64,000 nt of DNA. Origin: Candidatus Omnitrophota bacterium. Its GTDB lineage: Bacteria > Omnitrophota > Omnitrophia > Omnitrophales > Aquincolibacteriaceae. The notes below the pieces were generated by a model, which was given only the letters and a program-made list of their open reading frames with translations, was not told the DNA's origin and searched no databases. Position 1 is the stretch's first letter. Every line of letters starts with the position of its first letter. Of the stretch, positions 7,602 through 36,209 are shown in pieces. The stretch covers positions 12,090-76,089 of the forward strand of contig JAHFHG010000002.1 of NCBI GenBank assembly GCA_023247035.1, in the 5' to 3' direction. The position numbers and the translations under genes were made by a program.

Positions 7602-7668
7602 AAGCGCGATTTACAAGCGCGATTGAATTTGCGCGAACCTATAGGGGGGTGATACAATCCCGTCATTT

Positions 7669-8157: not shown

Positions 8158-8158
8158 T

Positions 8159-9133: not shown

Positions 9134-9134
9134 A

Positions 9135-10256: not shown

Positions 10257-10482
10257 GTCTGCGAAAGCTGGAGGCGCCTCTCGTAGAGCGAGGAATCGCC
10301 GCGAAAAGTTCGCAATCCTAATTTCGGCAGGTATCGCAGGGCCGGATTGAAACTCCCGCGCCGAAATAACGTAGGAAATCGCCTTACGGTTGCTTAAAAC
10401 CCCCGAAAGGAACTTTCCATTTTCAAAATCACCCCGTATACTTGATTCAGAGAGAGAGGATTTTCGTAAACGATAAAGCCAG

Positions 10483-11130: not shown

Positions 11131-11137
11131 TTTCAGA

Positions 11138-11290
11138 CTTGAGTTCCGCGAATTTCCAAATTCATAGAGTATCGCTTTTTGTGAGACAAGCGGTTGTCAT
11201 GTCCGCGTCCGCCGATAATCGGCGGGAAAGCGGCCCCGATAAAAACATTCAAGAATGACGGAAAGAAAAGCAAAATCCGCGGAACTCAAG
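11138..11290. repeat. MITE-like palindromic repeat, copy 1 (terminal inverted repeats TTGAGTTCCGCGAATTT / AAATCCGCGGAACTCAA), carrying a roughly 35 nt internal insertion relative to copy 2
   Basis: Near-identical to 18620-18733. The perfect TIRs were read directly in the sequence. Confidence 0.6.
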
Positions 11291-11615
11291 TTCAGAATTA
11301 GGCCATTAGGCCAAGCTCTCTTGGCTGAGGGTTTTGATTTTGGAGGCCTTAACTCCTTGATCCCGCGCGCGTTTGGCTTATTTATTTTTTTTAAGAAGAC
11401 TTCTTCTCGAAATTTTTAATCTTCGCAAGGTTGCTAATTTTTACAATCCTGTTACGGTTTAAGTTAGGGCATGAAATGGAAAAACTTTTCGGGAACCCGG
11501 AGATCCCAAAAATAGGCCGGGCAGCCCAAGATTTCATCGCCAAGCCTTTTGACTCTGGAGCGGCATAAGTAAAAATTTACCGCCAAAATTAGAGATCAAA
11601 GAGGAGAGGAGAATT

Positions 11616-12638
11616 ATGGCAACTGAGAGGCAGCTTCATGCCTGGCTGATTGTTTTTTTGGCCTGTTTTTCCTGCACCATTTTGTTATGGAATTACTTTT
11701 TCAATTCCGCCGAGCCTCTGGACCGAACCATCACAAGCAACATGATTTTTCTGATGGGGTTGTTGTTTTCCGTCTCGACTTCGCTTTGGATCCGATCTCT
11801 GGAGAAGGGCAAAGATCTGGCCGAAAGGGCGGCTCAGGAATCCCAGGCAAAACAGAGGAAGCTTGAAAAGATGTACCGGGAACTTCAGGAGAGCGAAGAG
11901 AATCTGCGCCGGGCGAGCAAGACCGCGCTGATGGGCGAACTGGCCATCGGCCTGGCCAATGAGCTGAACAATCCTTTCGGAGTGATTCTCGGGTTCGCGC
12001 GGTCGGCCAGAAAACAGGGCGCCGAATCGGAATCCTTGAAGCACGCCCTTCATATTATTGAGCATGAAGCCGAGCAGTGCTCCCAGATCATCAAAGATCT
12101 TATGACCTTTTCTTCCTGTAAAGAAATCGTCACCAAACAAAAATTTTCTCTCGGCCCGCTGATCGATGAAGCGGCCTCCTACGTTCTCTCGAATCAAAAC
12201 GGATATTCGATTCAATATGCCAGAGAGCTGGAGACGGAAGATATGGACCTGACCGCAAACCGGAACCAATGCTACCAAATGCTTGTGCATCTTATGAAGA
12301 ATGCGGTCGAGGCGATTCAGGACAACAGTTTCGGCCCTCAGGAAGGCGTCCTCCGCATTCATGCGAAAAAATACCGGGAGAAGGATGAGCCCTGGCTGGA
12401 AATCAGAGTGGAAGATACGGGCATCGGCATTCCCCCCTCCATTCGCTCGCGTATCTTCGAGCCCTTTTTTACAACGAAACATGCCCGCCGAAGAGTGGGG
12501 CTGGGACTGGCCATTGTCCAGGAGGTGGTCAACCGGCACCGGGGCGTTATCACAGTTGAGAGCCAGGCAGGCCAGGGAACAAGCATCGGCGTGGCATTGC
12601 CTGCGGGAGATGATCCCTATGCCGGGCCTGGAGCCTAA
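11616..12638 (+). CDS. Sensor histidine kinase (2 TM helices, HisKA, HATPase_c)
   Basis: H-box ELNNPFGVILGF, N-box HLMKNAVEA, G1 DTGIGIP and G2 GLGLAIV. Confidence 0.8.
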   Translation: MATERQLHAWLIVFLACFSCTILLWNYFFNSAEPLDRTITSNMIFLMGLLFSVSTSLWIRSLEKGKDLAERAAQESQAKQRKLEKMYRELQESEENLRRASKTALMGELAIGLANELNNPFGVILGFARSARKQGAESESLKHALHIIEHEAEQCSQIIKDLMTFSSCKEIVTKQKFSLGPLIDEAASYVLSNQNGYSIQYARELETEDMDLTANRNQCYQMLVHLMKNAVEAIQDNSFGPQEGVLRIHAKKYREKDEPWLEIRVEDTGIGIPPSIRSRIFEPFFTTKHARRRVGLGLAIVQEVVNRHRGVITVESQAGQGTSIGVALPAGDDPYAGPGA

Positions 12639-20156: not shown

Positions 20157-20260
20157 AGCGCGGCCTTCCCAAGCGATCCGGCCTAAAAGTTTGACCTGTG
20201 AACCGCTCGACGAAGATTGGTTATTTGAAGGAAGGTTTTAGTTTCATCAATAAGGAAAAA

Positions 20261-20902
20261 ATGTTTTCTGGAATCGTTCAAAATCGAGGGATTGTCCGGC
20301 GGCGGATCCCACAAAACGGCCAAGTCCGATTTTCATTCCGTCTGGAAAAGCCGGAAAAAGGATTGAGGATCGGCGAAAGCATTGCCGTGGACGGCGTTTG
20401 TTTAACGGCCGCTAAAATTGGATCGCGGACCTTTGAAGCGGACGTCATCCGAGAGACTTTAGAGGCGACGACCCTCCGCCGCCTTAAAATGGGAGAGCGG
20501 GTCAATCTGGAACGCGCTCTGAAGTTTGGAGATCGGTTAAGCGGGCACTTTGTGACCGGCCACGTCGACGCTCAAGGAATTCTCCGGAAGATCCGGAAAA
20601 AAGGCGCTAACCGGACTTTTTTCATCGAAGCGCCGAAAGACATATTGAAATTCATTGCGCGAAAAGGATCGATTGCCGTCGACGGCGTCAGCCTTACGAT
20701 CCAAGATCGCTTTGGAAGGATTTTTTCCGTGGGTCTTGTCCCTCACACGCTCAGCGCCACTTCATTGCGCCTCAAAAAAATAGGAGACCCTGTAAATTTA
20801 GAAGCCGACTTGATGGCCCGCTATTTGGACCTTTTAAATTCCGCCGTCCCGCGCGACTTCCGGCGCCTTCAAATTTCAACTTTAAAGAAGCGGGGATTTT
20901 AA
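20261..20902 (+). CDS. ribE: Riboflavin synthase alpha chain
   Basis: MFSGIVQNRG...GESIAVDGVCLT repeat and the GHVD motif. Confidence 0.85.
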   Translation: MFSGIVQNRGIVRRRIPQNGQVRFSFRLEKPEKGLRIGESIAVDGVCLTAAKIGSRTFEADVIRETLEATTLRRLKMGERVNLERALKFGDRLSGHFVTGHVDAQGILRKIRKKGANRTFFIEAPKDILKFIARKGSIAVDGVSLTIQDRFGRIFSVGLVPHTLSATSLRLKKIGDPVNLEADLMARYLDLLNSAVPRDFRRLQISTLKKRGF

Positions 20903-20903
20903 A

Positions 20904-22739
20904 TTGCCCAGCGCCCCGCCGCCTCAAGGAATCAGAATCCACAATGTGACGACGAATGTGACGGGCCGCACGCCGGTCGAGCGGATTGTCTCGGATCAAG
21001 TTTGGCAAAGCGAAATCCGGCCGGTTCTTTCCAGATTTCTTCAGGGCCCCGGAATCAAACATCACAAGGCCTTGATCGGGCAATGGATCATCGAATATGT
21101 TGGAAATGACCCGCATATGCACGAGTTTTTCGTCAAGAATTGGAAGCCGGCGCCGGCCGAAGCCTCGCCGCACATTCAAAGTTACGTTTTCACCGGGATT
21201 CAAGATCGTGAAGGGATGAAAAAGTTTCTGGGATTGAGGAGCGAGGAGGAGGTCCGTAATCACCGGGAAAATTTTTTGCGGATCATTCAAAATAATAAAA
21301 AATACCGCAGCGCGCTGCGCGATCCGAGACTCAAAGAGATCGAGAGGTATCCCGAAAACGAGCAGCTTGATATCGCGCTTTTCGCGCCCGCCACGGTCTA
21401 TGGCCCGCAGGAAAAAAGTTTTGTCAGCCTCAACACGAATTACTACGGCCAGCTCAAATCCAAGTCCTCGTTAGGGCCGCTTGAGGAATACCTGATCGAG
21501 AAAGCGCGCGTCACGCCGGAAGGAAAAATTTTGAATCCTGCGGACGTATGGCTTTCAATGCACGCGGGCTGCAGCGAATACACTGCGGAAAACGGCCAAA
21601 AACGGGGCATTGTCATTCTCGCGCCGACGGGAAGCGGAAAATCGACGCACGGCTACGGCCTGGTCGAGGCCAAAAAACGCAACCGCCTGCATTCCGACGA
21701 TTGGGTTTTTGTCAACCTCGCTTCGCGCGAAGTCATGATCTCCGAAAATCAGTTTTATATGCGCACCAATATCGCCGGCATTTACCCTCACTTAATTCCG
21801 CTGCTGGTCAATCAGCCCTTGGAAAACGCCGCCTTGAGTCCGGAAATCATCCGGCTTCTTGAGCATTTTGATTCGCCCGAAGATTTGCGTAACGCTTTCA
21901 CGGACGGCCGCGTCTCCGCTTCGGATTACCGCAAGATCAGGGAACAGATGATCGAAAATAACGCGGCCCGGGCCTTGATCGATCCGCGGCTCATGGTCGG
22001 CGCGGAAAAATTCATCGAAAAAACAGCGCTGACCGATCTCTTTTTGATGAAGAGGGATTATGACAGCCGGATGGTTTTAAAAATTCTCACGGAAGATGAA
22101 ACGATCGAGATCCTGACGTCGAAGGGAAATGTTTTTAATTATGTTTACGGAAAGTCCGACGCGGACGGCTACGGAATCCTGGAAGGCAGGACAACGGAAA
22201 TTTATTATAATCCTTATCTCTGCCAATGCGGCGTGGATGCCGAAAAAGGGAAAATCAGCGGGTTGGATAAGATCAGGATCGAAGCCTACCGCACGCTTGC
22301 GCGTCATCCGGAGATCCGCGTTTCGTGGGTCAATACGCGGCTTCCTGCGGCGCAATGCCAGTTCTGTCTCCGGCGGTTTCTGGAGGGCGGGATCGATTTT
22401 ATCCAGGTGGAAAAAGGCCGGACCGTCGAGCGGGAAATAATGGATTTGCTTCACCTGAATGAAAAGGAAAAATCGCCGCTTCCGGGGCGCAGAGAAATGG
22501 ACAGGACCGGGCTTTACGACCCCAGCGGGCAGGAGGTCGAGGTGATTGCTTTTTACTCGCAGGACAAAGCCGAAGAGGTCATTGCATTTTTTAAATCTGC
22601 GCAGGAGGGCGTAAAAAATCCGGTCGCCGGATATTTAAGCCGCCCTTTTGCGGAGGCTTCGTTTCGCGTGGAACTCCCAGAAACATTTTTCAAAAAATAC
22701 GCGCGCTTAGGCGTCGGCGAATTGCTTGGGAAGAATTAG
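20904..22739 (+). CDS. Hypothetical 611-aa P-loop protein with an HprK/PEPCK-like kinase core
   Basis: GIVILAPTGSGKSTHGYGL...RLHSDDWVFV resembles the HprK Walker A plus its downstream DD motif. Confidence 0.5.
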   Translation: MPSAPPPQGIRIHNVTTNVTGRTPVERIVSDQVWQSEIRPVLSRFLQGPGIKHHKALIGQWIIEYVGNDPHMHEFFVKNWKPAPAEASPHIQSYVFTGIQDREGMKKFLGLRSEEEVRNHRENFLRIIQNNKKYRSALRDPRLKEIERYPENEQLDIALFAPATVYGPQEKSFVSLNTNYYGQLKSKSSLGPLEEYLIEKARVTPEGKILNPADVWLSMHAGCSEYTAENGQKRGIVILAPTGSGKSTHGYGLVEAKKRNRLHSDDWVFVNLASREVMISENQFYMRTNIAGIYPHLIPLLVNQPLENAALSPEIIRLLEHFDSPEDLRNAFTDGRVSASDYRKIREQMIENNAARALIDPRLMVGAEKFIEKTALTDLFLMKRDYDSRMVLKILTEDETIEILTSKGNVFNYVYGKSDADGYGILEGRTTEIYYNPYLCQCGVDAEKGKISGLDKIRIEAYRTLARHPEIRVSWVNTRLPAAQCQFCLRRFLEGGIDFIQVEKGRTVEREIMDLLHLNEKEKSPLPGRREMDRTGLYDPSGQEVEVIAFYSQDKAEEVIAFFKSAQEGVKNPVAGYLSRPFAEASFRVELPETFFKKYARLGVGELLGKN

Positions 22740-22745
22740 CCCGCC

Positions 22746-24158
22746 ATGAATGAAAATTTCCACGCGGTTTTGATTGCCGGCACGCATTCCAGCGCCGGCA
22801 AGACCACCTGGTCGCTCGCTTTAATGGCGCTGGCCCGGAAAAAAGGACTCACGGTGCAGCCCTTTAAGGCGGGCCCGGATTACATCGATCCGGGTTTCCA
22901 TCATGAAATTTGCTCTCCGCGGCGTTCAAGAAACCTCGACCTCTTTTTCCTTTCAAAAGAAAAAATATCCGAGAGTTTTCATAACCGCTCTCGGGATACC
23001 GGCCTCGCGATTGTGGAAGGAGTCATGGGACTTTATGACGGCAAAGGGCCGAGCGGTACCGAAGGAAGCAGCGCGGAACTGGCGAAGATTTTGAGGCTTC
23101 CGGTTCTGTTAGTGATCGACGGCTCGAAAATGGCCGGGAGCGCGGCGGCATTGGTTTCAGGATTTAAAAATTTTGATCCCGCAGTTCATTTGGCCGGTGT
23201 TTTGATCAATCGCGTGCGGCCGGGGCATTTCCATTTGCTCAAGCGGGCGATTGAACTTTCGACGGGGCTCCCGTGTCTTGGATTCCTGCCCGAGGAGGAA
23301 GCCTTTTCGATTCCCGAGAGGCATTTAGGATTGACCCCCGCCGCTGAGACGCAAAATTGGAAAGTGAAAATCGACCGGGCCGCCTCTTTTCTTGAAAAGA
23401 ATTTGGATTGGGATGCTTTCCTCCGGATTTCCACGATTCCAAGACCGCCTGCGCAAGCTCAGCCTAAGGAGAAGGTTGAAAGGAATAAGTCTTCCCAAGA
23501 ACCGGTTAAGATCGGCGTGGCGCGTGACGCCGCTTTTTCCTTTTATTATGAAGACAACTTGGATCTCCTCAACGAGCAGGGAGCGGAGATTCTTTTCTTT
23601 TCTCCCCTTAAGGATCCTGTTTTGCCCGAAGGCTTGGATTTCCTTTATCTGGGAGGCGGATTCCCTGAAATTTACGCCCAGGAGCTCGCCAAGAATGAAT
23701 CGATGATAAAATCCGTCCGGGATTTTTACGCCCGGGGCGGTTTTATTTACGGCGAATGCGGCGGGCTTATTTATTTGGCGGAGGCTTTCTGCGATTCAGA
23801 CGGAACGGAATATCCTTTATTGAAATTGCTGCCGGGAAAAATCGCGATGACCCGCCGGTTGCAGAATTTCGGATACCATGAAATAAAAACGCAAACCGAT
23901 ACTTTCCTATTTTCCAAAAATACGGCGCTTCGATCTCATGAATTCCATTATTCGATTTGGAATCAGGAAGGAAACGCCTCTCCGGCGTATCAGATCGGAG
24001 ACCGGCCGGAAGGTTTTGCGTCCGGGCGGATTTTTGCAAGTTATCAGCACTTGCATTTTGGTTTGGATTCCCGGATTTTAGCCCGGCTGTTTGAAAGTTT
24101 AAAGGCTTCCCAAGATCTTAATCGCGGCAAACAAATAAAAAAGGAGGAAAAACAATGA
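22746..24158 (+). CDS. cbiA: Cobyrinate a,c-diamide synthase (CbiA/CobB)
   Basis: N-terminus AVLIAGTHSSAGKTT and a C-terminal GATase1 domain with a conserved Cys (GECGG). Confidence 0.85.
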   Translation: MNENFHAVLIAGTHSSAGKTTWSLALMALARKKGLTVQPFKAGPDYIDPGFHHEICSPRRSRNLDLFFLSKEKISESFHNRSRDTGLAIVEGVMGLYDGKGPSGTEGSSAELAKILRLPVLLVIDGSKMAGSAAALVSGFKNFDPAVHLAGVLINRVRPGHFHLLKRAIELSTGLPCLGFLPEEEAFSIPERHLGLTPAAETQNWKVKIDRAASFLEKNLDWDAFLRISTIPRPPAQAQPKEKVERNKSSQEPVKIGVARDAAFSFYYEDNLDLLNEQGAEILFFSPLKDPVLPEGLDFLYLGGGFPEIYAQELAKNESMIKSVRDFYARGGFIYGECGGLIYLAEAFCDSDGTEYPLLKLLPGKIAMTRRLQNFGYHEIKTQTDTFLFSKNTALRSHEFHYSIWNQEGNASPAYQIGDRPEGFASGRIFASYQHLHFGLDSRILARLFESLKASQDLNRGKQIKKEEKQ

Positions 24159-24505
24159 AATCAAAACAGACGAAGGCGGTTTTCATTGCGCTGGTTTTGT
24201 CCCTCGGATTTATTTCTAACTTTCCGCTTGCGGCGCAGGCGGCGGGGGAGGGAACGACGGGGGATTATTTCGTCGATATCGGAACGAAGTTCGGCAGGGG
24301 CCTTTGGAACACGGTTTCAAGTCCGGCCGAGATCCCCTGCACGATCACGGCGGATATTCAAAATCAGGGGGGCGTCGGATTTTTCAGCGGTTTTGGAAAG
24401 GGAATCTTGTTTATGCTGCGCCGCATTCTTGTCGGAGTCACCGAAGTCGGCACGTTTATCATTCCGATGGGCGCGACGATTCCTGCTGTTTGCAGTTCGA
24501 AATAA
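24155..24505 (+). CDS. Small exported hypothetical protein
   Basis: Signal peptide MKSKQTKAVFIALVLSLGFISNFPLAAQA. Sits between cbiA and cobQ. Confidence 0.4.
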   Translation: MKSKQTKAVFIALVLSLGFISNFPLAAQAAGEGTTGDYFVDIGTKFGRGLWNTVSSPAEIPCTITADIQNQGGVGFFSGFGKGILFMLRRILVGVTEVGTFIIPMGATIPAVCSSK

Positions 24506-26118: not shown

Positions 26119-26529
26119 ATGCCGACGAAAAAAGACGCTTACCTGATTATCGCGCACGGGACCCGGGATCCGGAAGGCCGGCGCGCCTTCGGGGAATTTC
26201 TCGGAAAATTCCGGGCGGCTTATCCGCACCGGCATATCCAGGGCGCATTTTTAAGTATGGGCGAACCGACGGTCCCTCAAGCCGTTGAGCGCTGCGTCCA
26301 GGAAGGGGCCCGGCAAATTTTCGTCATTCCTCTTTTGTTTTTTTCCGGCCGGCACGCAAAGGAAGATATCCCCCGCCGCATTCAGGAGGCGAAAAGCACT
26401 TACCCCGAGATTGACTTTCATTATGCGAGTCCGCTCGCCGAAAATCCCAAGTTGTTTTCACTCTTGGAAGAAAAGATGAAGACCTTAACACAAGGTAAGA
26501 TGAAAGGCAAATGCACCAACGCGGTATAA
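26119..26529 (+). CDS. cbiX: Sirohydrochlorin cobaltochelatase, short form (CbiX-like)
   Basis: AYLIIAHGTRDPEGR ... FVIPLLFFSGRHAKEDI. Confidence 0.7.
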   Translation: MPTKKDAYLIIAHGTRDPEGRRAFGEFLGKFRAAYPHRHIQGAFLSMGEPTVPQAVERCVQEGARQIFVIPLLFFSGRHAKEDIPRRIQEAKSTYPEIDFHYASPLAENPKLFSLLEEKMKTLTQGKMKGKCTNAV

Positions 26530-26559
26530 AGCGATGAGTTCAACCGCTGGAGGTGCAAG

Positions 26560-27106
26560 ATGGAGTATTCAAACCCTTGAGAGGAAAATGTTGGATGAAG
26601 ACCTGGAGTTTTTAGAAGCTTTGAGGACGTTCGGTCTATGGGATCAGTTTTGGAGGAACTGAGAGAAAAGGATGAAGTCGGTAGAGGGTTTGAAGAGCGT
26701 TCCCGGGATCGGGAAATTCTTCGCGATGCCCATACGCCACGAGATTGAGGGCATCGATTGATTTCAGACATCCGATAAGCTTTGTGCTTATGCAGGATGG
26801 GTCTCCTCGACTTGCGGCATCATCAAGCAAGGGAATAAATGCTTACGGTGTGCGCTTATTGAAGCGGTGATTCCGGCCATTAGAGTCGATGCGCAGTTTA
26901 GAAGTTATTACGAATCCATGAAGGTGAAGAAAGGCGCCAACGCAGCGAAGGCGGCGACAGCAAGAAGACTGCTGAGAATCATTTGCCGGATTTGGAAAGA
27001 GAAAAGATTGTATCGAACACAATCACTTAATGGACCGCTCTCCTCACCTCCTAAAGGTCCCGGATTTATGGGGAGCGTTCTTGGACATAGGTTAGAGGAT
27101 CCGTGA
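26560..27106 (+). mobile_element. IS110-family transposase remnant: C-terminal Transposase_20 region only, with at least one frameshift; the DEDD N-terminal domain is absent
   Basis: LKSVPGIGKFFAMPIRHEIEGID then, after a frameshift, FQTSDKLCAYAGW...GANAAKAATARRLLRIICRIWKE; typical IS110/IS116/IS902 C-terminus. Confidence 0.6.
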
Positions 27107-27247
27107 ATCGGATTTTACGATGTGCGGCGCTGATGCGGGCACGAATAGAAGGATGATCAGCTTTTATGAGGGGATCAAAGCAACAAAAGCCAATGCAGCC
27201 CCTTAAAAAATAATCTTGCATTTGGCTTTCATAGAAGGAGACAAGGC

Positions 27248-27442
27248 ATGAGCGAATCGAAAAAACCAAAATATGAACCTCCGAAAGTTTACCGCGTTGT
27301 GCTGAACCACGATCAGGCGATCCTTTCGGGCTGCTCCACAGGGACGACGAGTATTTCCAACACGACCGGCGCGAATTGTAATACCAGCTGCCGCCGAAGC
27401 ACGTCCACCGCGACCAGTTCCAACTCATCGGCTTCCTCGTAA
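27248..27442 (+). CDS. Candidate RiPP precursor peptide (64 aa; leader MSESKKPKYEPPKVYRVVLNHDQAIL, core rich in Ser/Thr/Asn/Gly with 3 Cys)
   Basis: AAGGAG Shine-Dalgarno 7 nt upstream. Stop lies 8 nt before the kinase gene. Low-complexity STNC core. Confidence 0.5.
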   Translation: MSESKKPKYEPPKVYRVVLNHDQAILSGCSTGTTSISNTTGANCNTSCRRSTSTATSSNSSASS

Positions 27443-27450
27443 AACCGGCG

Positions 27451-28326
27451 ATGCGGAATAAACGCTTTGAGATCGCCAATATTCCGTTTAGTTTCCTTCA
27501 CGATTCCTTTCATATTACCGACTGGCCGAACCCTTTTTATTTCCCGTTTCAAACTCAGAAGCCCGAGTTGATCAGGATACAAACCCGCCGCCTGAGAAAT
27601 ATTCCCTCCCGCGCTTCTTTTTCTGACCTGCGCTTCGACGGCGGTGCGCATTGGCGCCTTTTCGAGAATCACGGGCAATTCGAAGTCCATCTTTTCGATC
27701 CCAAAACCAAAGCGCACGACCGGACGGCGCGTATCTCGCCTGATTTTACGGAAGTGGAGCTGATCCATTGGAAAAAGTCTCATTTCCTGAACTGGATCCT
27801 GCGTCCGCTTGCCGAGATTCTGCTCGTCCATTATCTTGCGTCCCGGGAAGGTTTGCTGGTTCACGCAGCGGCGGTGCGGGACGGCGATCAGGCCTATCTT
27901 TTCGTGGGCCGCTCCGGCGCCGGAAAAACCACGATTTCAACGTTTTGGGCCGGCGTCGAGGGCGACGTTTCTGTTTTGGGAGACGAGCGGCTCGTGGTGC
28001 GGCGCGAGGCCGGCGAATGGTTTGCGTACGGCACTCCCTGGCCGGGAATGGGTTTCCGCTGCAACAATGAACGCGTGCGGATCAGCCGCGTTTTTTTTAT
28101 CCGCCACGGGAGTGAGCATGAAATCATCGAGCAGGGTCCCGCCCTTTATTTTAATGAATTGTTCACGCAGGTTTTTTCCTCTTTTTGGAACCTTGAGGCG
28201 CTCGATCAAATCACGCGGACTTGCCAGAAAGCTGTGGAGGAAATTCCCTGCCGCCTGCTGGCCTTCGCGAAAGCGCCGGATGTGACCGGGTTTGTCAGGA
28301 ATTTTAACTGCGCCGCGCAGCCTTAA
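27451..28326 (+). CDS. HprK-related P-loop serine kinase-like protein
   Basis: AYLFVGRSGAGKTTIS...VLGDERLVV parallels the HprK C-terminal kinase core (Walker A plus acidic motif). Confidence 0.6.
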   Translation: MRNKRFEIANIPFSFLHDSFHITDWPNPFYFPFQTQKPELIRIQTRRLRNIPSRASFSDLRFDGGAHWRLFENHGQFEVHLFDPKTKAHDRTARISPDFTEVELIHWKKSHFLNWILRPLAEILLVHYLASREGLLVHAAAVRDGDQAYLFVGRSGAGKTTISTFWAGVEGDVSVLGDERLVVRREAGEWFAYGTPWPGMGFRCNNERVRISRVFFIRHGSEHEIIEQGPALYFNELFTQVFSSFWNLEALDQITRTCQKAVEEIPCRLLAFAKAPDVTGFVRNFNCAAQP

Positions 28327-28334
28327 ATCCGCTT

Positions 28335-29378
28335 ATGGAAAATTTGCCGCAGGTTTCCGTTCATGAGTTCAATGACCGTCTCCGCGCCCGCGCAAAAGAG
28401 CTGCGGATCCCGTTTCAGGCCTCGCTGGAATTGACCTATGCCTGCAACTTTCGCTGCGTCCATTGTTTTAATCCGCACCACGAATCGAAGGACGACCTTG
28501 GAACCGAATTTTGGAAATCCGTTCTTGGCCAGCTTGCCGGCGAGGGCTGTCTCGTCGCGCTTTTTACCGGCGGCGAGCCGCTCGTGCGCAAAGATCTTTT
28601 TGATCTGCTCGCTCACGCCCGCAATTTGGGAATGCAGTGTATTCTCAACACCAACGGCCTTCTGCTCGATCCGGAAAAAATCCAGAGGCTCGAGGAATCG
28701 GGTCTGACCTTGCTGGCGGTTTCCGTTTTCGGGATGAGCGTTCAAAGTTACGAATCGGTGACCCGCATCCCCGGATCGTTCGCGCGCTTTTTGCTCCACG
28801 TGGAGCAGCTCAGGCGGTCCCGAATCCCGCTCCTTTTTAAAATGCCGGTGATGCAAATGAATTACCAGGAAGTGGAATACGCCAAGGATTGGTTTTCAAG
28901 CCGGGGACTTCTCCTCAAACACACTTCGGAGATCCAGCCTCGCGCGGACGGCGATCCGGAACCTTTGCAGCACCGTATTTCAAGCGCCCAAGCAGCGGAT
29001 TTGAGATTCCGTTACGAAGAAGATTTAGGATGCGGAAAACGAAGCCCCCGGAAAGATGAATTTTTTGATTGCCAATGCGGGAAAAGCGCGGTCGCCATTA
29101 CCCCGCGCGGCGAAATGAATCTGTGCGTCTCTTTCCATTATCCGCGCCACTCGCTTTTAAAAGGAAGTGTCCGGGAGGGCTGGAAAAGGCTTGTGGATTT
29201 TGCGGCAGATTTCAAACCCTCCGAAAAATACGAGTGCCCGGGCTGCCGGTTGTCTCCTTACTGCTCGCGCGGCGCAATGGATTCGTGGCTGAATACGGGC
29301 GATTTCAATCCGTGCGTCCCTTACTTTAAGGAAGTCGCAGGCCGGATTGAAGGCGCCCTGAAAAAAAGGAGTGAATGA
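28335..29378 (+). CDS. Radical SAM enzyme with a C-terminal SPASM domain (peptide-modifying maturase class)
   Basis: TYACNFRCVHCFN (CxxxCxxC) near the N-terminus. C-terminal CQCG...CPGCRLSPYC auxiliary-cluster Cys pattern. Confidence 0.8.
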   Translation: MENLPQVSVHEFNDRLRARAKELRIPFQASLELTYACNFRCVHCFNPHHESKDDLGTEFWKSVLGQLAGEGCLVALFTGGEPLVRKDLFDLLAHARNLGMQCILNTNGLLLDPEKIQRLEESGLTLLAVSVFGMSVQSYESVTRIPGSFARFLLHVEQLRRSRIPLLFKMPVMQMNYQEVEYAKDWFSSRGLLLKHTSEIQPRADGDPEPLQHRISSAQAADLRFRYEEDLGCGKRSPRKDEFFDCQCGKSAVAITPRGEMNLCVSFHYPRHSLLKGSVREGWKRLVDFAADFKPSEKYECPGCRLSPYCSRGAMDSWLNTGDFNPCVPYFKEVAGRIEGALKKRSE

Positions 29379-29385
29379 AGAAAGT

Positions 29386-29850
29386 TTAGGGCGGGCTTCC
29401 GGAATGCAATCGCCTTAAAATCCGCGAAGGCGCGTCGAGAAACCAGGGATTGGTCGGTGAAAGGAGGGCCTGCCAAAAGCGAAGAAGGAACGGCCGTTTT
29501 TCCAGGTCGAAAATTTTTTCTCCTCTTTGAACCTGCGTGATCTTTCCCACCAGCGGAGAAATTCCGGCGCGTCCTTTGAAGAAAGGGACAAAACAGGTGT
29601 TCGCATGAAAATTTTCACCGGATATTTTTCTCACCGCGACATCGCCGAATCGAAGGCTCGATTCGTCTGTTTTCTTGATCGTAACGAGGTCGCCCCGGCG
29701 CACCACCGGCCACATGCAATTTCCAAAGAGTTTCATTTGAACGGAGCCGGAAAATTCCAATTCCGAAAGAAGAATCGAGGCCTGCAGGGGTTGGGAAAGG
29801 GCCTTTTCTTCAAGAGGCGGATTAAGGGACGGCACGGCCAAATTTAGCAC
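29386..29850 (-). CDS. S24/S26-like (LexA/signal-peptidase fold) peptidase with Cys in place of the nucleophile Ser
   Basis: GNCMWPVVRRGDLVTIKK ... FGDVAVRKI mirrors G(D/N)SMxP...GDlvlV...GDivVaK of S24 peptidases. Convergent with the rSAM gene, gap 8 nt. Confidence 0.5.
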   Translation of the reverse strand: MLNLAVPSLNPPLEEKALSQPLQASILLSELEFSGSVQMKLFGNCMWPVVRRGDLVTIKKTDESSLRFGDVAVRKISGENFHANTCFVPFFKGRAGISPLVGKITQVQRGEKIFDLEKRPFLLRFWQALLSPTNPWFLDAPSRILRRLHSGSPP

Positions 29851-30020
29851 GGCGGAGCCGGCTTCCGCAACGGATCTTTTGCCTTCGCCGGATTTTCAAT
29901 TCTTTCTAACATTCAGGATCATTTTCAGTCTTCGGCTCAAAAGCGCATTCTGCGCATTTGATCTTACAAAACGAACCGCTATAATTAATGAAACACGGGC
30001 GGCAGGAAATCGAACCCTTC

Positions 30021-33000
30021 ATGAAAACCATCTCTTTATTCCAGAAACCCAGCGCGATTTTTTTAATCTTTTCTTTAAGCCTTTCCCAAAGTCCCTCGTA
30101 TGCCGCTGCCGCGCCGGCGCCTCCGCTGGCGGTTTCTGAGCGCTCCCGGGCGCTTCTTTTTCTTCCCGAAGAACTTGGCGAGATCGAAGAATCCTTTCAG
30201 GGATCGAACGGAAAAACCGTGATCTTCATTCAAGACGCCCACGATTCCCTCGAAGCGCAGGAAAATATCGCCAAGACTATTCAATACCTGGTGGACAAGT
30301 ACGGGGTGAAGACTGTTTTTGAAGAAGGCTATGAAGGTCCTGTTCCCACGGATGATTATTTCGGCTTCATCAAAGATCCGTCCGTCAAAGAGAAAGTTTC
30401 TTACTTTTTATTAGATAAACTCCGCCTCGGCGGCGCGGAATACGCACACATCAACCGCTTTCACAACTTGTCATTCCCGCACGCGTTAAGCGGGAATCCA
30501 AATTTTAGGTCCCCGATAGAAACATTCGGGGACGACAAAAAACGTGTCGATTTCAAACTGATTGGGGCAGACAATATAAAGTTACATCTTGAGAATATCG
30601 ATTGGTATCGCCAGAATGCCAAGCATAAAGAAGAAACTGGAAGAGATTTGACTATTCTGCAAAATGAAATCGACAAACTTGCCAACCGGTATTTTCCTAA
30701 GGAACTCAAAGAATGGATGAAGCTTAAGAAAAGGTTTGATGAGAAACAAATTGATCTTTTGGATTATTTAAAGCGGACAATACAAGTCCCTCATCGAGAA
30801 TCCATAGACCATAAACTTTACCCCAATCTTTCGCTTCTCCTTCAAGCAGAACACACTCAAGACAAAGAAGTCCTAGAGAAAGTGAAAACCATTGAAGCCA
30901 AGATTCTTTTCGAGGAAATCGATTCGTTGGAAAACGCCGCCGCCGGCCCATTCCTACAAAATGGAACAGACCGGAAAATCTTCCAATATTACAAAGGAAT
31001 AAATCTTCTCAAAAGACTCAACGAGATTGAGATTACGCCCGCTGAATATGAGGCGGTCAAAGCGCAGCTTCAACATCTCAGCACCCAGGAACTGGCCCAA
31101 TTTATTGTCCAGCAAACGAATAAATCCATCGTCCTTTCCAAACGATGGGAGGAAAATATTGAAAGCGCCATTCGGTTTTATCAAATCTCACGAGCCAGAG
31201 ATTCTGCGATTGCCGAGCGACTGAATGATTTTCTTAAAAATCATGATGAAAAAGTGGCTGTCCTTGTCTTTGGAGGATTTCATAAAGAGAGGATTACAGA
31301 ATTGTTGAGAAAGAAAGGACTCCCTTACTATATAGTTTCTCCTCGAATAATGAACGTCGACAATAAGCATAAGGAACTCTACGCGCATTTAATGACAAAG
31401 GGATATTCGCTTTTCCCCGTTGCGGCAAATGTTGCTAAGGCAGCGCGTTTAGCAGGAGAGATCGAGCTCGCGGAAATGGGCGGCCAGAACGCAAAGTCAG
31501 AACTCCGAGCGTACCATGCGGCAATCACTAACATTGTTTCTTCATTGGTCTCCAATCGACCCAATCAAACATCTCGAGAACTGCTCGATCGTTTGATTAA
31601 CGGACGATTGATACACGAAGTTCTAAAAGTATCCAAACAAGCAATGGGAAAACGCCGATCCGAACTAAGAAGTAAAGAATCGGATTTTGCTTTAAGAGAA
31701 AAACGCCGTGATTATCTCAAGCGGCTAATGAATCAAGAAAATAAGCAATGGACGTTGGATGAGTTAGCAAACGCTACAGGTCAATCAACAGGACAGATTG
31801 TTAAGGATTTGCGATATTTGAATCTTTTTAAGCCCTCAAATCACCTAAATTTAGATGCCGAACGCATAGACCGAAGAAGACAGTGGGGATTACCAGATTA
31901 TTCTGACCTCGATAAGCTTTTACCTCGCTTGGATGAAGAATTTGCATATCTTCATGGAGAGGCTCTTTTTAATTTTTTAGCTCAAAAAGGCCGCGAGAAT
32001 GACCCCGTAAGCATGGAAGCGGCTATTTACGGCTTCTATAAATTTGTTGGAGAAAAAACCCCCGGTAATATTTCAGAACGAGGGCGATTGCTTGGTGAAC
32101 GCATTTATCACTATCTGAGGTTAAGAGAAAGTATGCCTTCTGACGGCCTGCGTCGAAATCCAGATGTTGAGTTCGATATTGGTATGGCAGAAAAAAGGAA
32201 GCGGGAGTCACGGCTTCCAAAATTTGGAAATATAAAAACAAGGAGGCCGAAGAAGAAAGTTTCTTTTTCGGAAGCACAGCAAATTATGGAAGAAAAAAAT
32301 TTACATTTAGATCAATCAATCGCATTCGTTGCGTTGTCCACGGCAGAAAATGAAACTTTATTTCGAGCGCTTAAATCAAGCGAATTGGAAGAGTCCGAGC
32401 GAAGACAAATTTATGATTATTTGATTCAGAAGCATGTAGGGTTTGTCGGCTGGTGGATCAAACATAAGATGCCGCCTTGGTATTTTGAACATTTTAACTT
32501 CGAAGAACTTTTAGCTTTTGGCCAAATTGGCCTTATGAAAACGATTGAAAGATATGATTTCAAAATGGGGCGGCGCTTTACCAGTTATGCCGAATGGTGG
32601 ATTCGCCATTCTATCCAACGCTCCATAGAGAAAAAAACACATAAATCTTTAAATGTCAGGCGTGATGAGGATAGCCCGGAGTGGATTGATACTTTGTCGG
32701 ATTCAAAAGATCAATCGGAAGAAGAATTATGGCCGGAACTATTTTCCAGTCTTAGGCATCTCGATAGTCGGTCTCGCATTATGTTGAGCTTGCGTTACGG
32801 GATTGGATCAGTAAGAACATACAATCTTCGAGAAATTGGCTTAATGTTTGGTGTAACTCACGAGCGTGTTAGACAAATTACAGAAAGAGCAGTTGAAAAG
32901 TTAAAACGCTTGGTTGGAAAAGTAACGGTTGATGATTCTTCTCAAGACCATACCGATGTTTTTTTATTCGAGGCTATGGAGTTAGAGCCAGAGAATCCAC

Positions 33001-36000
33001 TTTTCAAGCCACTAAGCCATCTCGGAGTTAAAAAGCTTGACCGGATTCGAGAAGTTCTTTCAAAAGAAAATCGCTTCAACTCGGAAATGCTGATGAGGAT
33101 TTTTAGGTCACGCGGCCAGTATGTGATAGCTCCATCGAAATATTTATGGGGTCTGCCTGCGGGTTTGCTTGAAACCGGCGGTGACACTTCCCATCATTTT
33201 GGATCGTGGAATGAAGAAGGTGGAAGACATAACATAGATTTACAAAAACCCAAAAAGATTCATTTTTCCAACGCACTCACAACCACAACCGAAATCATAA
33301 AAAGGTATCCTTATGCTCGGTATCTACTGCCTCCTGAAGAACAACTATTGCTGGCCTCTCAGGCTCAAGGAGAAAGGAGCCGATTCTATGCTTTGGGTAA
33401 GACATTGCAGTGGATTGGACTTTCTCCGCAAGATTTTATTATTTGGCTTGTTGAAAATAAAAAATATTTAGATCAAGAAATCGTTGATTTTATCGCACAA
33501 TCACCACTTTCTAAACGTCCTCGATACGAGCTAACGGCATCCCGCACAGGTGAGCATCTTCATGGGTCTTTACCAAGACCACGTACTGACCGAAAGATTG
33601 CAACGAAATGGATTTCAACTGAAGAAACCAGCTACACGCTAATCACACCTGCTGAATTGGCGGACCGCTTCCCTTCTGCCGAACCCTTCTTGGATAAACT
33701 CGAACCTCAATTACTTCTTGAGGCGGATTCGTCCGAGCATGATGAAATTAAATACTATTCTTTTGTTGAAGATGGACATCATACAAAAATTCTAATAAGG
33801 ATCAATAAAAGAACCGGCGAAATCCAAAGTCCTCATGATGGCCCAATCGGTTTTAGAAAGGAAATTTTGGATTTTGTAAGAAAAGGTGAGTTTGGCAATA
33901 AGCAAAAGCCTCCTGTTACCGCGCCTTTTGAAATGCACGCCGGATCACGGCATTTTATTTATTTCGGAACGATGGGGAAAGGTTCCATTGGCTTGAGTAT
34001 GAAGGGAGTGAAACCTAACACGCGTGTATCAGGAAGCGCTGTTCATTTGGAGCATGCTCCTCTTGGAATGGGGCCGCAATGGCTTTTAAGACTCACTGTT
34101 CATTTGAAAAGACCAAGAGTTGTTTATGCGAGATTCAAACGCTCTGGAACCCGCTTAGGTTTATTTAAAAAATCCCCTCAAACTTATATCGGAGCTTTTG
34201 TCAAACTTGGGAAATGGAATCAGGAAAAAATCCAGCCATTCCCTGAAAATGAAATCGAAATTACCGCGAGTTCCAAAGGACGTTTGGAACTTGGAAGCAA
34301 TGGCGATGGAGAGCGGATTGTTATTCACTTACCACTTTTACCCAAAGATCATAAAGTTTTAATTCGAAAAGTCCGCAATCAAGAAGATGGACAACAGCTC
34401 TTGGTCGTTCATACCCGCAATCCTGCTTATCGATATAGAAAATTTTATTATCGATTCACGAATCGTGGCTATCACACCCGAAGATACCACGAGGAAGTAA
34501 AGGACATAAGTCCCACGGCTAGAAGGAAGCTTAGCTATGAAGAAATTGCAAAGGCACAAGAAGATTTGAGAAGCCGAGAAGGAGCAGAGGCAAACTTATG
34601 GCGCGATCCCGAAAAGATTGCTTATGAGCTTGACCTATTCGACGCTTATTATCTTGTTTCGGAAGTTCAAAGAATAAACGCTTCTTTAGTTGCTCAAGAC
34701 ACAGCTAATTTGCCGCCTCTCGAAATAGACACCTCAAAGATTGTTGAGCTGCCGACTCCGGCTTACGATCAAGTAGGAGACGTTTATCATGCTGTTCCAG
34801 AATCTTCTGAGCGACCGGAGAAATCCGAGAAACCAGTCAAACCTAAACCATTATCCCCTTTAAGACTTGCTCAAAAAAGATTGGAAGAAGCTGAAAAAAA
34901 AACATTAGCTGAACGTTTGAAGGTTGGCTTTCGAGATGTGGGAGAAAGCGGTCGGTTTTTAGATTTGGGCGCAGGAAAGGGTGATTTAACCGCTGAACTT
35001 GCTGGACAATTTCAAGGTGGGGTTGCAGTCGAAATAAATGAAGATCGAGTCGAGCAGCTACGGCAGAGAAAAATTCCAAATCTTAATATTTGGGACATGG
35101 ATTTTTTTGATTATATGGAGATGGCGATTAAAGGGAATCAGCTTTTTGATGCGATTCTCATTTCACATGCTCTTTTATTCATTAAATTTGATCGCCGGGA
35201 CGCTTTCTTAAAAGATGTTCTATCAAGACTTAAGCCGAATGGAAAATTAGCGATTATTTTAAATGGCAGTAAAATTGAAGAGAGAAACCAAGTTCAGTTG
35301 CGAGCAAAGCTCATGAGAAAGCATGAGGCGCTAGCAGGAGACAACCCATCAACCAATATTGAAAGCAAACTGCGACAAATCGGCTATGGGGTACAAACCG
35401 AAAGAGTCAGAATCATTCATGAGACTCCTTCCAGAGACGAAATGATTTCTATTGTAAAAGCAATATTGCCACGCGAAGACCGTTTTCGTCTGTCGAATAT
35501 CACTGGATTTGTCGATTCAGTCCTGAAATTACCTGGAGAAGAAAAGTACCGCCTCTATGTTGATCAAGATATTTTATGGATAACACATCCTCGTTCTGAG
35601 GTTAGAAAGCAAGAAAATGTATTTGCAATGGTGTCTGTCAACGATTGGCAAAACTTTAATCGAACTAATCAGAATACCGAGGCTACGGCCACCAAAGCCG
35701 TCGTTTTTATAGATGGTTCCGTCGATAGCAAAGATGCCAAGCAGCGGGCGGAAGAATTAGCGGTGCTGGCCGCAGGTAATCCGAACCGAACGATTGTGGT
35801 TTATAATGCGGACAAAGTTTTTAAAAATAAAGGCGGTGAAATGGCGGAACTTTTAAAGTCGTTTGGTCTCGCCAATGTCAAGTTCGCTGCGGGTGAGTTG
35901 TCCGAAGCCCTCAAGCCCTACCAATTCCGGGATCAAGTTGATTTGGTGCACTACTCGGCAAGCGAAGAGGAGGCTGTTTTTGTTCAAGCCTCCGTTGGGA

Positions 36001-36209
36001 AATGGCTGGCGCAAAAACTGACCCGATTTGTCGGAGGGCCCGGCGCCTTAGGATACGGAATAAAATATTTGCAGGCTGTGAAATTGGGCAAGCCTGTGGA
36101 AGGTATCACGCCCGAGAACGGCTACTACGCCGTTTCCCCAGGCGCTTCGGAGTGGATGCGAAGCCTTTATCGAGCTCGGTTCGCGACCGTTTTCGCTCAA
36201 GCGGCGTGA
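30021..36209 (+). CDS. Giant multidomain protein (about 2060 aa): signal-peptide-like N-terminus, TraB/GumN/TIKI-like domain, sigma-70 region 2 plus region 4 module, central unknown region, class I SAM-methyltransferase motif, unknown C-terminus
   Basis: Uninterrupted 6.2 kb frame in AT-rich DNA. Motifs IFIQDAHDS...VLVFGGFHKERITELLRKKGLPYYIV; GQIGLMKTIERYDFKMGRRFTSYAEWWIRHSIQRSI; LREIGLMFGVTHERVRQITERAVEKL; FLDLGAGKGDLT. Confidence 0.7.
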   Translation: MKTISLFQKPSAIFLIFSLSLSQSPSYAAAAPAPPLAVSERSRALLFLPEELGEIEESFQGSNGKTVIFIQDAHDSLEAQENIAKTIQYLVDKYGVKTVFEEGYEGPVPTDDYFGFIKDPSVKEKVSYFLLDKLRLGGAEYAHINRFHNLSFPHALSGNPNFRSPIETFGDDKKRVDFKLIGADNIKLHLENIDWYRQNAKHKEETGRDLTILQNEIDKLANRYFPKELKEWMKLKKRFDEKQIDLLDYLKRTIQVPHRESIDHKLYPNLSLLLQAEHTQDKEVLEKVKTIEAKILFEEIDSLENAAAGPFLQNGTDRKIFQYYKGINLLKRLNEIEITPAEYEAVKAQLQHLSTQELAQFIVQQTNKSIVLSKRWEENIESAIRFYQISRARDSAIAERLNDFLKNHDEKVAVLVFGGFHKERITELLRKKGLPYYIVSPRIMNVDNKHKELYAHLMTKGYSLFPVAANVAKAARLAGEIELAEMGGQNAKSELRAYHAAITNIVSSLVSNRPNQTSRELLDRLINGRLIHEVLKVSKQAMGKRRSELRSKESDFALREKRRDYLKRLMNQENKQWTLDELANATGQSTGQIVKDLRYLNLFKPSNHLNLDAERIDRRRQWGLPDYSDLDKLLPRLDEEFAYLHGEALFNFLAQKGRENDPVSMEAAIYGFYKFVGEKTPGNISERGRLLGERIYHYLRLRESMPSDGLRRNPDVEFDIGMAEKRKRESRLPKFGNIKTRRPKKKVSFSEAQQIMEEKNLHLDQSIAFVALSTAENETLFRALKSSELEESERRQIYDYLIQKHVGFVGWWIKHKMPPWYFEHFNFEELLAFGQIGLMKTIERYDFKMGRRFTSYAEWWIRHSIQRSIEKKTHKSLNVRRDEDSPEWIDTLSDSKDQSEEELWPELFSSLRHLDSRSRIMLSLRYGIGSVRTYNLREIGLMFGVTHERVRQITERAVEKLKRLVGKVTVDDSSQDHTDVFLFEAMELEPENPLFKPLSHLGVKKLDRIREVLSKENRFNSEMLMRIFRSRGQYVIAPSKYLWGLPAGLLETGGDTSHHFGSWNEEGGRHNIDLQKPKKIHFSNALTTTTEIIKRYPYARYLLPPEEQLLLASQAQGERSRFYALGKTLQWIGLSPQDFIIWLVENKKYLDQEIVDFIAQSPLSKRPRYELTASRTGEHLHGSLPRPRTDRKIATKWISTEETSYTLITPAELADRFPSAEPFLDKLEPQLLLEADSSEHDEIKYYSFVEDGHHTKILIRINKRTGEIQSPHDGPIGFRKEILDFVRKGEFGNKQKPPVTAPFEMHAGSRHFIYFGTMGKGSIGLSMKGVKPNTRVSGSAVHLEHAPLGMGPQWLLRLTVHLKRPRVVYARFKRSGTRLGLFKKSPQTYIGAFVKLGKWNQEKIQPFPENEIEITASSKGRLELGSNGDGERIVIHLPLLPKDHKVLIRKVRNQEDGQQLLVVHTRNPAYRYRKFYYRFTNRGYHTRRYHEEVKDISPTARRKLSYEEIAKAQEDLRSREGAEANLWRDPEKIAYELDLFDAYYLVSEVQRINASLVAQDTANLPPLEIDTSKIVELPTPAYDQVGDVYHAVPESSERPEKSEKPVKPKPLSPLRLAQKRLEEAEKKTLAERLKVGFRDVGESGRFLDLGAGKGDLTAELAGQFQGGVAVEINEDRVEQLRQRKIPNLNIWDMDFFDYMEMAIKGNQLFDAILISHALLFIKFDRRDAFLKDVLSRLKPNGKLAIILNGSKIEERNQVQLRAKLMRKHEALAGDNPSTNIESKLRQIGYGVQTERVRIIHETPSRDEMISIVKAILPREDRFRLSNITGFVDSVLKLPGEEKYRLYVDQDILWITHPRSEVRKQENVFAMVSVNDWQNFNRTNQNTEATATKAVVFIDGSVDSKDAKQRAEELAVLAAGNPNRTIVVYNADKVFKNKGGEMAELLKSFGLANVKFAAGELSEALKPYQFRDQVDLVHYSASEEEAVFVQASVGKWLAQKLTRFVGGPGALGYGIKYLQAVKLGKPVEGITPENGYYAVSPGASEWMRSLYRARFATVFAQAA
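30470..30536. repeat. Second copy of the double-hairpin unit, located inside the coding sequence of the giant ORF (read through in frame)
   Basis: TTGTCATTCCCGC...GCGGGAATCC...GTCCCCGATAGAAACATTCGGGGACGAC aligns with 14389-14445. Confidence 0.5.

Follow-up and report, generated by a model that had tools for sequence, protein, structure and literature searches.

Results

Genes at 27248-29850 probably form a compact RiPP cluster

In a 64,000-nucleotide stretch of contig JAHFHG010000002.1 from a Candidatus Omnitrophota bacterium (hereafter, the window), the genes at 27248-29850 probably form a compact cluster for a peptide that ribosomes synthesize and that is modified after translation (RiPP). 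The four genes encode a small precursor peptide, a 291-amino-acid (aa) P-loop protein of the ScmC family, a radical-S-adenosylmethionine (rSAM) enzyme and a peptidase resembling signal peptidase I (SpI), as listed in Table 1. From these genes we infer that a precursor Ser is phosphorylated, that Cys residues are cross-linked and that the leader is removed. The 291-aa protein is very probably a component of peptide maturation. The narrower assignment, as a kinase for the C-terminal Ser of the precursor, is more tentative and slightly below an even call. Precursor phosphorylation is its most likely activity because its gene belongs to a conserved trio with a Cys/Ser-rich precursor and an rSAM enzyme. 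All four open reading frames (ORFs) of the cluster are intact and retain their invariant residues.

Table 1. Main features of the window and motif equivalences of the 611-aa protein
Feature	Position	Strand	Match or context
Putative RiPP precursor, 64 aa; leader KYEPPKVYRVVLNHDQAIL (YxxP motif of the RiPP recognition element (RRE) type), Ser/Thr-rich core, C29/C44/C48, C-terminal Ser	27248..27442	+	
ScmC-family P-loop protein, 291 aa (mini-PEPCK/HprK fold); predicted ATP-dependent precursor-peptide Ser kinase	27451..28326	+	
rSAM enzyme, 347 aa, Cys-rich SPASM-like C-terminal extension; predicted cross-linker of three Cys	28335..29378	+	PF04055, 75.7 bits
SpI/S26-like peptidase, 154 aa, Cys for Ser nucleophile	29386..29850	-	TIGR02228, E 6e-4
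Divergent PEPCK-fold enzyme, 611 aa (597 aa by gene callers), outside the peptide system, riboflavin-operon-linked	20904..22739	+	follows ribE (20198-20902)
611-aa protein, GRTP21			E. coli PckA GRSP64
611-aa protein, YYGQLKSK180			E. coli PckA YGGEMKK207
611-aa protein, SMH218			E. coli PckA SMH230
611-aa protein, GSGKST243			E. coli PckA GTGKTT251
611-aa protein, SDDW264			E. coli PckA GDDEH267
611-aa protein, LENA306			E. coli PckA LENV310

The order of peptide, P-loop and rSAM genes is conserved

The original prediction described an HprK-family kinase that is encoded between peptide and rSAM genes, outside any phosphotransferase system (PTS) context. The ORF indeed encodes 291 aa on the forward strand; residues 153-161 read GRSGAGKTT and residues 176-183 read LGDERLVV, and both neighbours are as described. 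ScmC-like orthologues with 40-54% identity were found on eight further metagenomic contigs (L003, L004/5, L006, L007/8, L100, L101, L018-20 and the contig of protein P0008). In all eight, a small ORF is followed by the ScmC-like gene and then by the rSAM gene, and the stop and start codons usually overlap. In the window, the rSAM ORF begins eight nucleotides past the stop codon of the 291-aa ORF. Every ScmC-like homologue of this subfamily is directly followed by an rSAM orthologue with 46-51% identity. The connection of an HprK/PEPCK-superfamily P-loop protein to peptide maturation is thus borne out by the conserved order, by a Pfam ScmC match and by fusions of ScmC-like proteins to PqqD and S24/S26 domains (see below).

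The eight other loci are larger than the window locus. Directly upstream of the trio, all of them carry a PqqD-TPR-PqqD-rSAM-rSAM module, so that each locus has two PqqD and three rSAM genes in total. Sugar-nucleotide genes (epimerases and a GHMP kinase) lie downstream in L003, L004, L007, L008 and L101, and four of these five also have an NTP_transferase gene. NTP_transf_5 genes occur in L003, L006 and L100, and ATP-binding cassette (ABC) exporter genes in L006 and L100. A scan of window proteins, which reached no further than 43.5 kb, gave neither NTP_transf_5 nor an MsbA-like pump. A lasso cyclase (the Asn-synthetase-like C protein) and a transglutaminase-like B2 protease were not found among the proteins flanking the 291-aa gene in the window or among the called genes of L003-L008, L100 and L101.

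The small ORF encodes a conserved precursor family

The ORF at 27248-27442 is preceded by a strong AGGAG ribosome-binding site. Ten distinct homologues of the peptide, with 55-76% identity, are encoded directly 5' of the ScmC-like gene in the other loci. The window peptide matches no NCBIfam or Pfam model, and no NCBIfam model matches the other precursors. The family members are 63-69 aa long and all possess three invariant Cys residues and an invariant C-terminal Ser. Their leaders follow the pattern KKYExPK(V/L/I)(Y/H/F)RV(V/A)L(N/Q/K)HDQA(I/L)LS(G/S)C, and their cores are rich in Ser, Thr and Asn.

Within this family, the tail is itself Ser-rich. A regular expression of the leader type was run over all of the small ORFs (7,203) in the collected loci. 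All leader-motif matches that lie directly upstream of rSAM-linked ScmC-like genes end in Ser, as compared with 9.9% of the small-ORF background. The tails read ...ASS, ...SSS or ...AGS in the window type, ...QGS in L009/L010, ...TVS in L021, and ...KNS or ...KLS in L011-L014. In L050, where no rSAM gene was detected, the leader-motif ORF beside the ScmC-like gene also terminates in Ser (...ERS). The precursor candidates belong to 4-5 core families, which are unrelated to one another apart from two or three Cys residues. This cross-family scan of sequences argues against the terminal Ser being a mere by-product of a Ser-rich tail. At the LPP-like position beside the first Cys, all precursors of the window type have a Ser (S27), but this invariance does not extend to the other families.

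The scan also gave unannotated precursor candidates in Acidobacteriota/Thermomonas ScmC-PqqD-rSAM loci: L011 7125-7292, L012 6400-6570, L013 7125-7310 and L014 6827-7090. These candidates have the leader YxKPxFxHExVFET, two Cys residues and a C-terminus of the form ...K(N/L)S.

The 291-aa protein is a distant member of the PEPCK/HprK superfamily

We compared the 291-aa protein with curated models of canonical HprK, phosphoenolpyruvate carboxykinase (PEPCK), the ScmC equivalog and HprK-related kinases A and B, for which the cut-offs range from 26.5 to 369 bits. The PEPCK profile gave 17.6 bits, with PEPCK_ATP below its gathering threshold (26.5 bits). The NCBIfam equivalog SCM_chp_ScmC (TIGR04249) gave 17.1 bits (E 0.0027; cut-off 125 bits). 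The scores for HprK-related kinases A (TIGR04352) and B (TIGR04355) were 15.5 and 15.0 bits, against a cut-off of 200. The HprK models TIGR00679 and PF07475 had no match at E<=0.01 for either the 291-aa protein or the 611-aa protein that is described below. In contrast to these faint scores, the Pfam ScmC label (PF27840) is carried by the 291-aa protein and by nearly all of its 197 relatives; this is a precomputed database annotation (E<=1e-5) for the identical protein P0001, and the match is weak for several orthologues. The 291-aa protein is thus a "mini-PEPCK/HprK" protein. In structural comparison, it resembled PEPCK and HprK more closely than it did other P-loop folds, and its overall fold is nearest to that of PEPCK.

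The protein has the features of the superfamily, namely a mixed alpha/beta P-loop fold with the arrangement His-x(n)-Walker A-x(n)-D(D/E). Across 36 family members, W68, G134, H138, G153, S155, G158-K159-T160-T161, L176 and D178 are invariant, as are G194, P196, G199 and P266, and E179 is present in at least 90%. In profile alignments, H138 corresponds to PEPCK His232, the Walker A motif to the PEPCK P-loop, and D178/E179 to the PEPCK "DD" (D268/D269). The phosphoryl-transfer machinery looks intact. The N-terminal beta-domain contains subfamily-invariant aromatic and other residues (W25, P26, F29 and W68). The PEPCK substrate motifs GRSP and YGGEMKK, which look conserved in the 611-aa protein, are not present in the 291-aa protein.

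A canonical HprK or PEPCK was considered for the 291-aa protein and ruled out by the profile scores and the lack of PTS genes. E. coli HPr, EI and IIA-Glc had no match in the window by tblastn or phmmer (CcpA was not searched for), and neither an HprK N-terminal domain nor an HPr/PTS partner was found for this protein.

The rSAM enzyme and the SpI-like peptidase

The rSAM protein possesses the CxxxCxxC motif at C37/41/44 and eight Cys residues within its last 115 residues, which resemble a SPASM extension. Its best NCBIfam matches are SPASM-type maturases (AhbD, NirJ, PqqE and ScmE/F), all far below their cut-offs; for ScmE/ScmF the scores were 52-55 bits against a cut-off of 400.

The 154-aa protein resembles archaeal/SEC11-type SpI near the nucleophile and aligns to SEC11 in that region. 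In its motif, GNCMWP, Cys45 stands in place of the Ser, and His82 lies 37 residues downstream. Judged by these motifs, the protein may be a Cys-His variant of the SpI fold. A homologue with 40% identity and the same GNCMWP motif is encoded in L003 (1160-1573). SpI-like genes also adjoin ScmC-like genes in L009, L014, L015 and L066, and the SpI-like relatives beside other ScmC-like genes keep GxSMxP. The SpI/S26-like peptidase gene is part of the peptide system.

The wider ScmC-like family is associated with peptide-handling proteins

The family profile matched 30,123 clusters (formed at 50% identity) at E<=1e-3, 13,860 at 1e-10 and 2,796 at 1e-30. In Nitrospirota, Binatia, Thermomonas and Acidobacteriota, a ScmC-like gene stands beside a PqqD gene and one rSAM/SPASM gene. 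PqqD/RRE adjoins the ScmC-like gene in most of about 80 loci of the wider family. On many rumen and gut contigs, the ScmC-like gene is followed by a lasso-type PqqD and no rSAM gene is nearby. In both L066 and L083, which were examined in this respect, a gene for an MsbA-like ABC pump follows the ScmC-like and PqqD genes; L066 also has NTP_transf_5 and an upstream SpI-like peptidase. Moreover, ScmC-like proteins are fused to S24/S26 peptidase (P0210 and P0277), PqqD (P0316 and P0075) and methyltransferase (P0214) domains. These neighbourhood patterns and domain fusions connect the P-loop protein with the binding of peptides and the cleavage of leaders.

The L066 locus (5933-11804), from human gut, is a full core of the type described for linear polyphosphorylated peptides (LPPs), a recently described RiPP class (see Discussion). 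It comprises a short ORF with an FxxPxL leader, followed in our list by genes for an SpI-like peptidase, a ScmC-like kinase, PqqD, NTP_transf_5 and an MsbA-like pump; between its peptidase and kinase genes lies a 378-aa ORF without informative family match. The positions of the ScmC-like and PqqD genes in L067, L068, L070 and L076 are identical to those in L066, and the same pair occurs in L073 and L074.

The 611-aa protein is a separate PEPCK-like enzyme

The original prediction also proposed that the 291-aa protein and the 611-aa P-loop protein upstream form a pair of divergent HprK-like kinases, as in HprK-related kinase A/B systems. The core PTGSGKST and LHSDDWVFV is present in the 611-aa protein, but its nature is PEPCK-like rather than HprK-like. 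As shown in Table 1, its motifs are look-alikes of motifs in E. coli PckA; they are collinear and invariant in the family. The PckA residues concerned are R65 (GRSP), Y207 and K212-213, H232, K254/T255 of the P-loop and D268/D269. The equivalence is backed by hhalign at positions 217-314 only (E 1.3e-3, 18% probability), and the N-terminal equivalences were drawn by eye. The structural-alignment identity to PckA is about 16%, and there is an extra C-terminal region of about 110 aa. The protein had no Pfam or NCBIfam PEPCK match at E<=0.01, did not reach the PF01293 gathering threshold (26.5 bits) and did not match TIGR04352 or TIGR04355. A profile of its family recovered no PEPCK from the PDB by sequence. 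Thus, neither of the two P-loop proteins scored as a canonical HprK or PEPCK.

The 611-aa family has 56 members, none with a Pfam domain; the few that are named come from "Candidatus Omnitrophica" and "Elusimicrobia". A fusion to nucleoside-diphosphate kinase occurs in one member, P0162 (758 aa). In the window, in L016 (8001-9788) and in L017 (8001-9419), the gene comes directly after ribE. In L016 and L017 it is preceded by a whole ribBA-ribH-nusB-ribD-ribE operon. In all three loci it lies ahead of cobalamin-type genes (CbiA/CbiX/CobD-type).

In the window, the 291-aa and 611-aa genes are on the same strand, 4.7 kb apart, and the similarity of their products is at the superfamily level only. 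None of about 95 ScmC-like loci holds a 611-aa homologue, and no ScmC-like gene was found near the 611-aa homologues in other loci. In assembly GCA_964385615.1, the homologues of the two proteins are on different contigs. The proposed kinase A/B-type pair is not supported, and the proximity of the two genes in the window is coincidental. On the basis of its motifs, the 611-aa protein is probably a PEPCK-like small-molecule enzyme that is separate from the peptide system.

Other features around the cluster

About 700 bp without convincing genes (26530-27247) separate the precursor gene from the gene for a 136-aa small CbiX-type chelatase (26119-26529), of which the best model is the F430 nickelochelatase CfbA (59.5 bits, cut-off 120). 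Further upstream, a 116-aa protein (24155-24505) that matches the exosortase-system-associated model TIGR04073 (51 bits, cut-off 50) is encoded between CbiA-like and CobQ-like amidotransferase genes. Downstream of the cluster, a single ORF of 2073 aa occupies 29988-36209; its GC content of 0.41-0.43 is markedly below that of its surroundings (about 0.51). Its product has sigma-70 regions 2 and 4 (aa 836-973), an S-adenosylmethionine-dependent methyltransferase domain (aa 1652-1760) and, as a faint match, a ChaN/Tiki-like region (aa 350-435); with this unusual architecture, the ORF was possibly acquired horizontally. No Rfam family was detected in the window, and promoter and terminator scans around the cluster gave nothing above shuffled expectation.

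Discussion

HprK-like kinases have an established place, as tailoring or primary enzymes, in the paeninodin lasso peptides and, from 2026 on, in the LPPs, both of them RiPP families. LPP clusters of Bacillota encode the HprK-like kinase LppK, LppS as an SpI-like peptidase for the leader, the RRE protein LppB, the nucleoside triphosphate (NTP)-transferase LppN and the pump LppD (Popov et al. 2026, PMC13381572). LppK puts several phosphates on Ser3 of the LPP core (PMC13381572). LppS, with the residues Ser29/His68/Asp93, cleaves the leader in an RRE-dependent manner and favours the phosphorylated substrate (PMC13381572). The LPP leader consensus is YxxPxVLxHQxIxFETxxS (PMC13381572), and the leader of the acidobacterial ScmC-PqqD-rSAM precursors almost matches it; the window-type leader keeps YExPKV...HDQAIL. 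Among the loci collected here, L066 holds all five LPP core genes, and L083 has the kinase, RRE and pump genes. In contrast, only the kinase-like and SpI-like genes of this set were found in the window. It differs from LPP clusters by its rSAM enzyme and by a core with three Cys residues; neither an RRE nor, among the proteins scanned, an NTP-transferase or pump was detected there. The host differs too: as names attached to homologues of the neighbouring 611-aa gene also indicate, it is probably Omnitrophota-like and not one of the Bacillota. The nucleophile of LppS is a Ser, whereas that of the window peptidase would be a Cys. Furthermore, conservation across the rSAM-linked families extends to the C-terminal Ser but not to a site of the Ser3 type.

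In the lasso systems, the HprK homologues PadeK, ThcoK and SyanK phosphorylate the C-terminal Ser of the precursor and require little else of its sequence (Zhu et al. 2016, reviewed in PMC8498205). A nucleotidyltransferase can then glycosylate the phosphate (PMC8498205). These kinases belong to the HprK superfamily and act on linear RiPP precursors, and their need for a C-terminal Ser matches the invariant Ser of the rSAM-linked ScmC precursors. The window system has an rSAM partner instead of the C cyclase and B2 protease, and the likeness drawn here is one of described function. The SynChlorMet protein ScmC (TIGR04249; PF27840) belongs to the same Pfam family as the 291-aa protein, and a P-loop protein combined with a PqqE-like rSAM/SPASM enzyme is common to both systems. 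The SynChlorMet cassette includes the PqqD protein ScmD and the rSAM enzymes ScmE and ScmF, whereas the window has one rSAM gene and no PqqD; the related full loci do carry two PqqD and three rSAM genes. For loci of the window type, the precursor family has been identified here. HprK-related kinases A and B (the HPr-rel-A system) share the superfamily and the context of a PqqD peptide chaperone, but there is no A/B pair in the window.

From these comparisons, a mechanism can be proposed. The 291-aa protein would bind ATP and phosphorylate the hydroxyl group of one precursor Ser. The site would most likely be the invariant C-terminal Ser64, as for the paeninodin-type kinases; an alternative would be Ser27, which adjoins the leader and is likewise invariant, as for LppK. 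The rSAM/SPASM-like enzyme would cross-link Cys29, Cys44 and Cys48, and the SpI-like Cys/His protein would remove the YxxP leader. Leader recognition without a local PqqD might depend on an RRE whose gene lies elsewhere, or the locus might be a reduced copy.

Several observations weigh against this mechanism. The window is alone among the nine loci in having no PqqD-TPR-PqqD-rSAM-rSAM module upstream of the trio. No PqqD/RRE or extra rSAM gene was found in the window by tblastn or custom hidden Markov models, although the leader carries a YxxP motif of the RRE type. Because the upstream module of all other loci is missing, the window locus could be a reduced or decaying copy. In the gap at 26530-27247 there are no remnants of the module; only the start region of the peptide matches the other loci. 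The 154-aa peptidase has a Cys instead of a Ser and no obvious conserved Asp. The 291-aa protein is distant from all curated models (15-18 bits). Given the Ser-rich tail of the window-type precursors, the terminal Ser is weak evidence within that family alone. The candidate precursor of L066, which is LPP-like and lacks an rSAM gene, ends in Ala (...DPWA). Therefore, the terminal-Ser rule seems to be confined to the rSAM-linked clades. Finally, within the literature covered, a survey on SynChlorMet, ScmC and HprK with PqqD found no experimental function for ScmC, including the rSAM-linked ScmC type.

Other roles of the 291-aa protein were considered. It might serve as an ATP-binding chaperone or scaffold: in place of PqqD/RRE, it would bind the leader and present the precursor to the rSAM enzyme or the peptidase. 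The lack of PqqD in the window would be explained in this way, the invariant W25, P26, F29 and W68 could form a peptide groove, and in all loci the ScmC-like and rSAM genes abut or overlap. However, all eight other loci and most of the wider family have PqqD as well, which means that ScmC is no replacement for it. Moreover, the His, Lys, Thr and Asp/Glu residues for phosphoryl transfer are invariant and the characterized relatives are true kinases, so that a scaffold is unlikely. A second possibility retains kinase activity: internal Ser/Thr residues would be phosphorylated for elimination, and attack by Cys would give lanthionine-like rings as with class III/IV lanthipeptide kinases, while the rSAM enzyme does something else. 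The core is extremely Ser/Thr-rich with three Cys residues, and CST follows the first Cys in most precursor members. Profile scans of the window and of the related loci, however, revealed neither a lyase nor a cyclase domain, the known relatives leave the phosphate on the peptide, and the precursors of other rSAM-linked ScmC families are not Ser/Thr-rich, yet keep Cys and the terminal Ser. We regard lanthionine formation as improbable.

A kinase for a small molecule, such as a sugar or sugar phosphate, that supplies the donor for peptide glycosylation would be in line with the sugar-nucleotide genes in five related loci, with NTP_transf_5 in three (L003, L006 and L100) and with the PEPCK-like overall fold. 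This role is very unlikely: the window and the P0008 contig keep the trio without sugar genes, the GRSP and YGGEMKK substrate motifs are missing, and the fusions of ScmC-like proteins are to peptide-handling domains. Cooperation of the 291-aa and 611-aa proteins as A/B-type kinases is less credible again. They have the His, Walker A and D(D/E) core in common and are encoded close together on one strand, but the kinase A and B models are not reached, the 611-aa protein is PEPCK-like, with look-alikes of the PEPCK small-molecule motifs, and the synteny of its family is with ribE rather than with genes for peptides. A canonical HprK/P or PEPCK with partners elsewhere in the genome can hardly be entertained. 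The weak PEPCK match and the common fold would agree with it, but at 291 aa the protein lacks most of PEPCK as well as the HprK N-domain, its scores are as given above, and the synteny with precursor and rSAM genes is strict.

We thus prefer phosphorylation of the precursor by the 291-aa protein. The system is an LPP-like core of kinase and SpI-like peptidase combined with radical-SAM chemistry and a newly recognized precursor family, and the window contains a minimal form without PqqD. It is conceivable, though still doubtful, that the unit of peptide, ScmC and rSAM genes defines a new RiPP class, in which a kinase of the PEPCK/HprK fold O-phosphorylates the invariant C-terminal Ser of a precursor with a YxxP leader, rSAM/SPASM enzymes cross-link the conserved Cys residues and an SpI-like peptidase, in the window a Cys-His variant, removes the leader. 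In the larger clusters of such a class, phosphoglycosylation via NTP_transf_5 and the sugar-nucleotide genes may come after Ser phosphorylation.

The 611-aa protein represents a new PEPCK-like family linked to the riboflavin operon, of some interest in its own right, and the locus shows that apparent "kinase pairs" recognized from a common Walker A core can arise by coincidence. As for the peptide system, the locus and its relatives supply a clearly conserved family of substrates, marked by the YxxP leader, the three Cys residues and the invariant terminal Ser, and they link ScmC-like proteins to SpI-like leader peptidases by neighbourhood and by gene fusion. The locus itself supplies a minimal four-gene version of the system. 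If the proposed RiPP class is real, the window would contain its minimal functional core, and both the old "SynChlorMet cassette" and the part of the ScmC family that is linked to rSAM enzymes would gain a first function.

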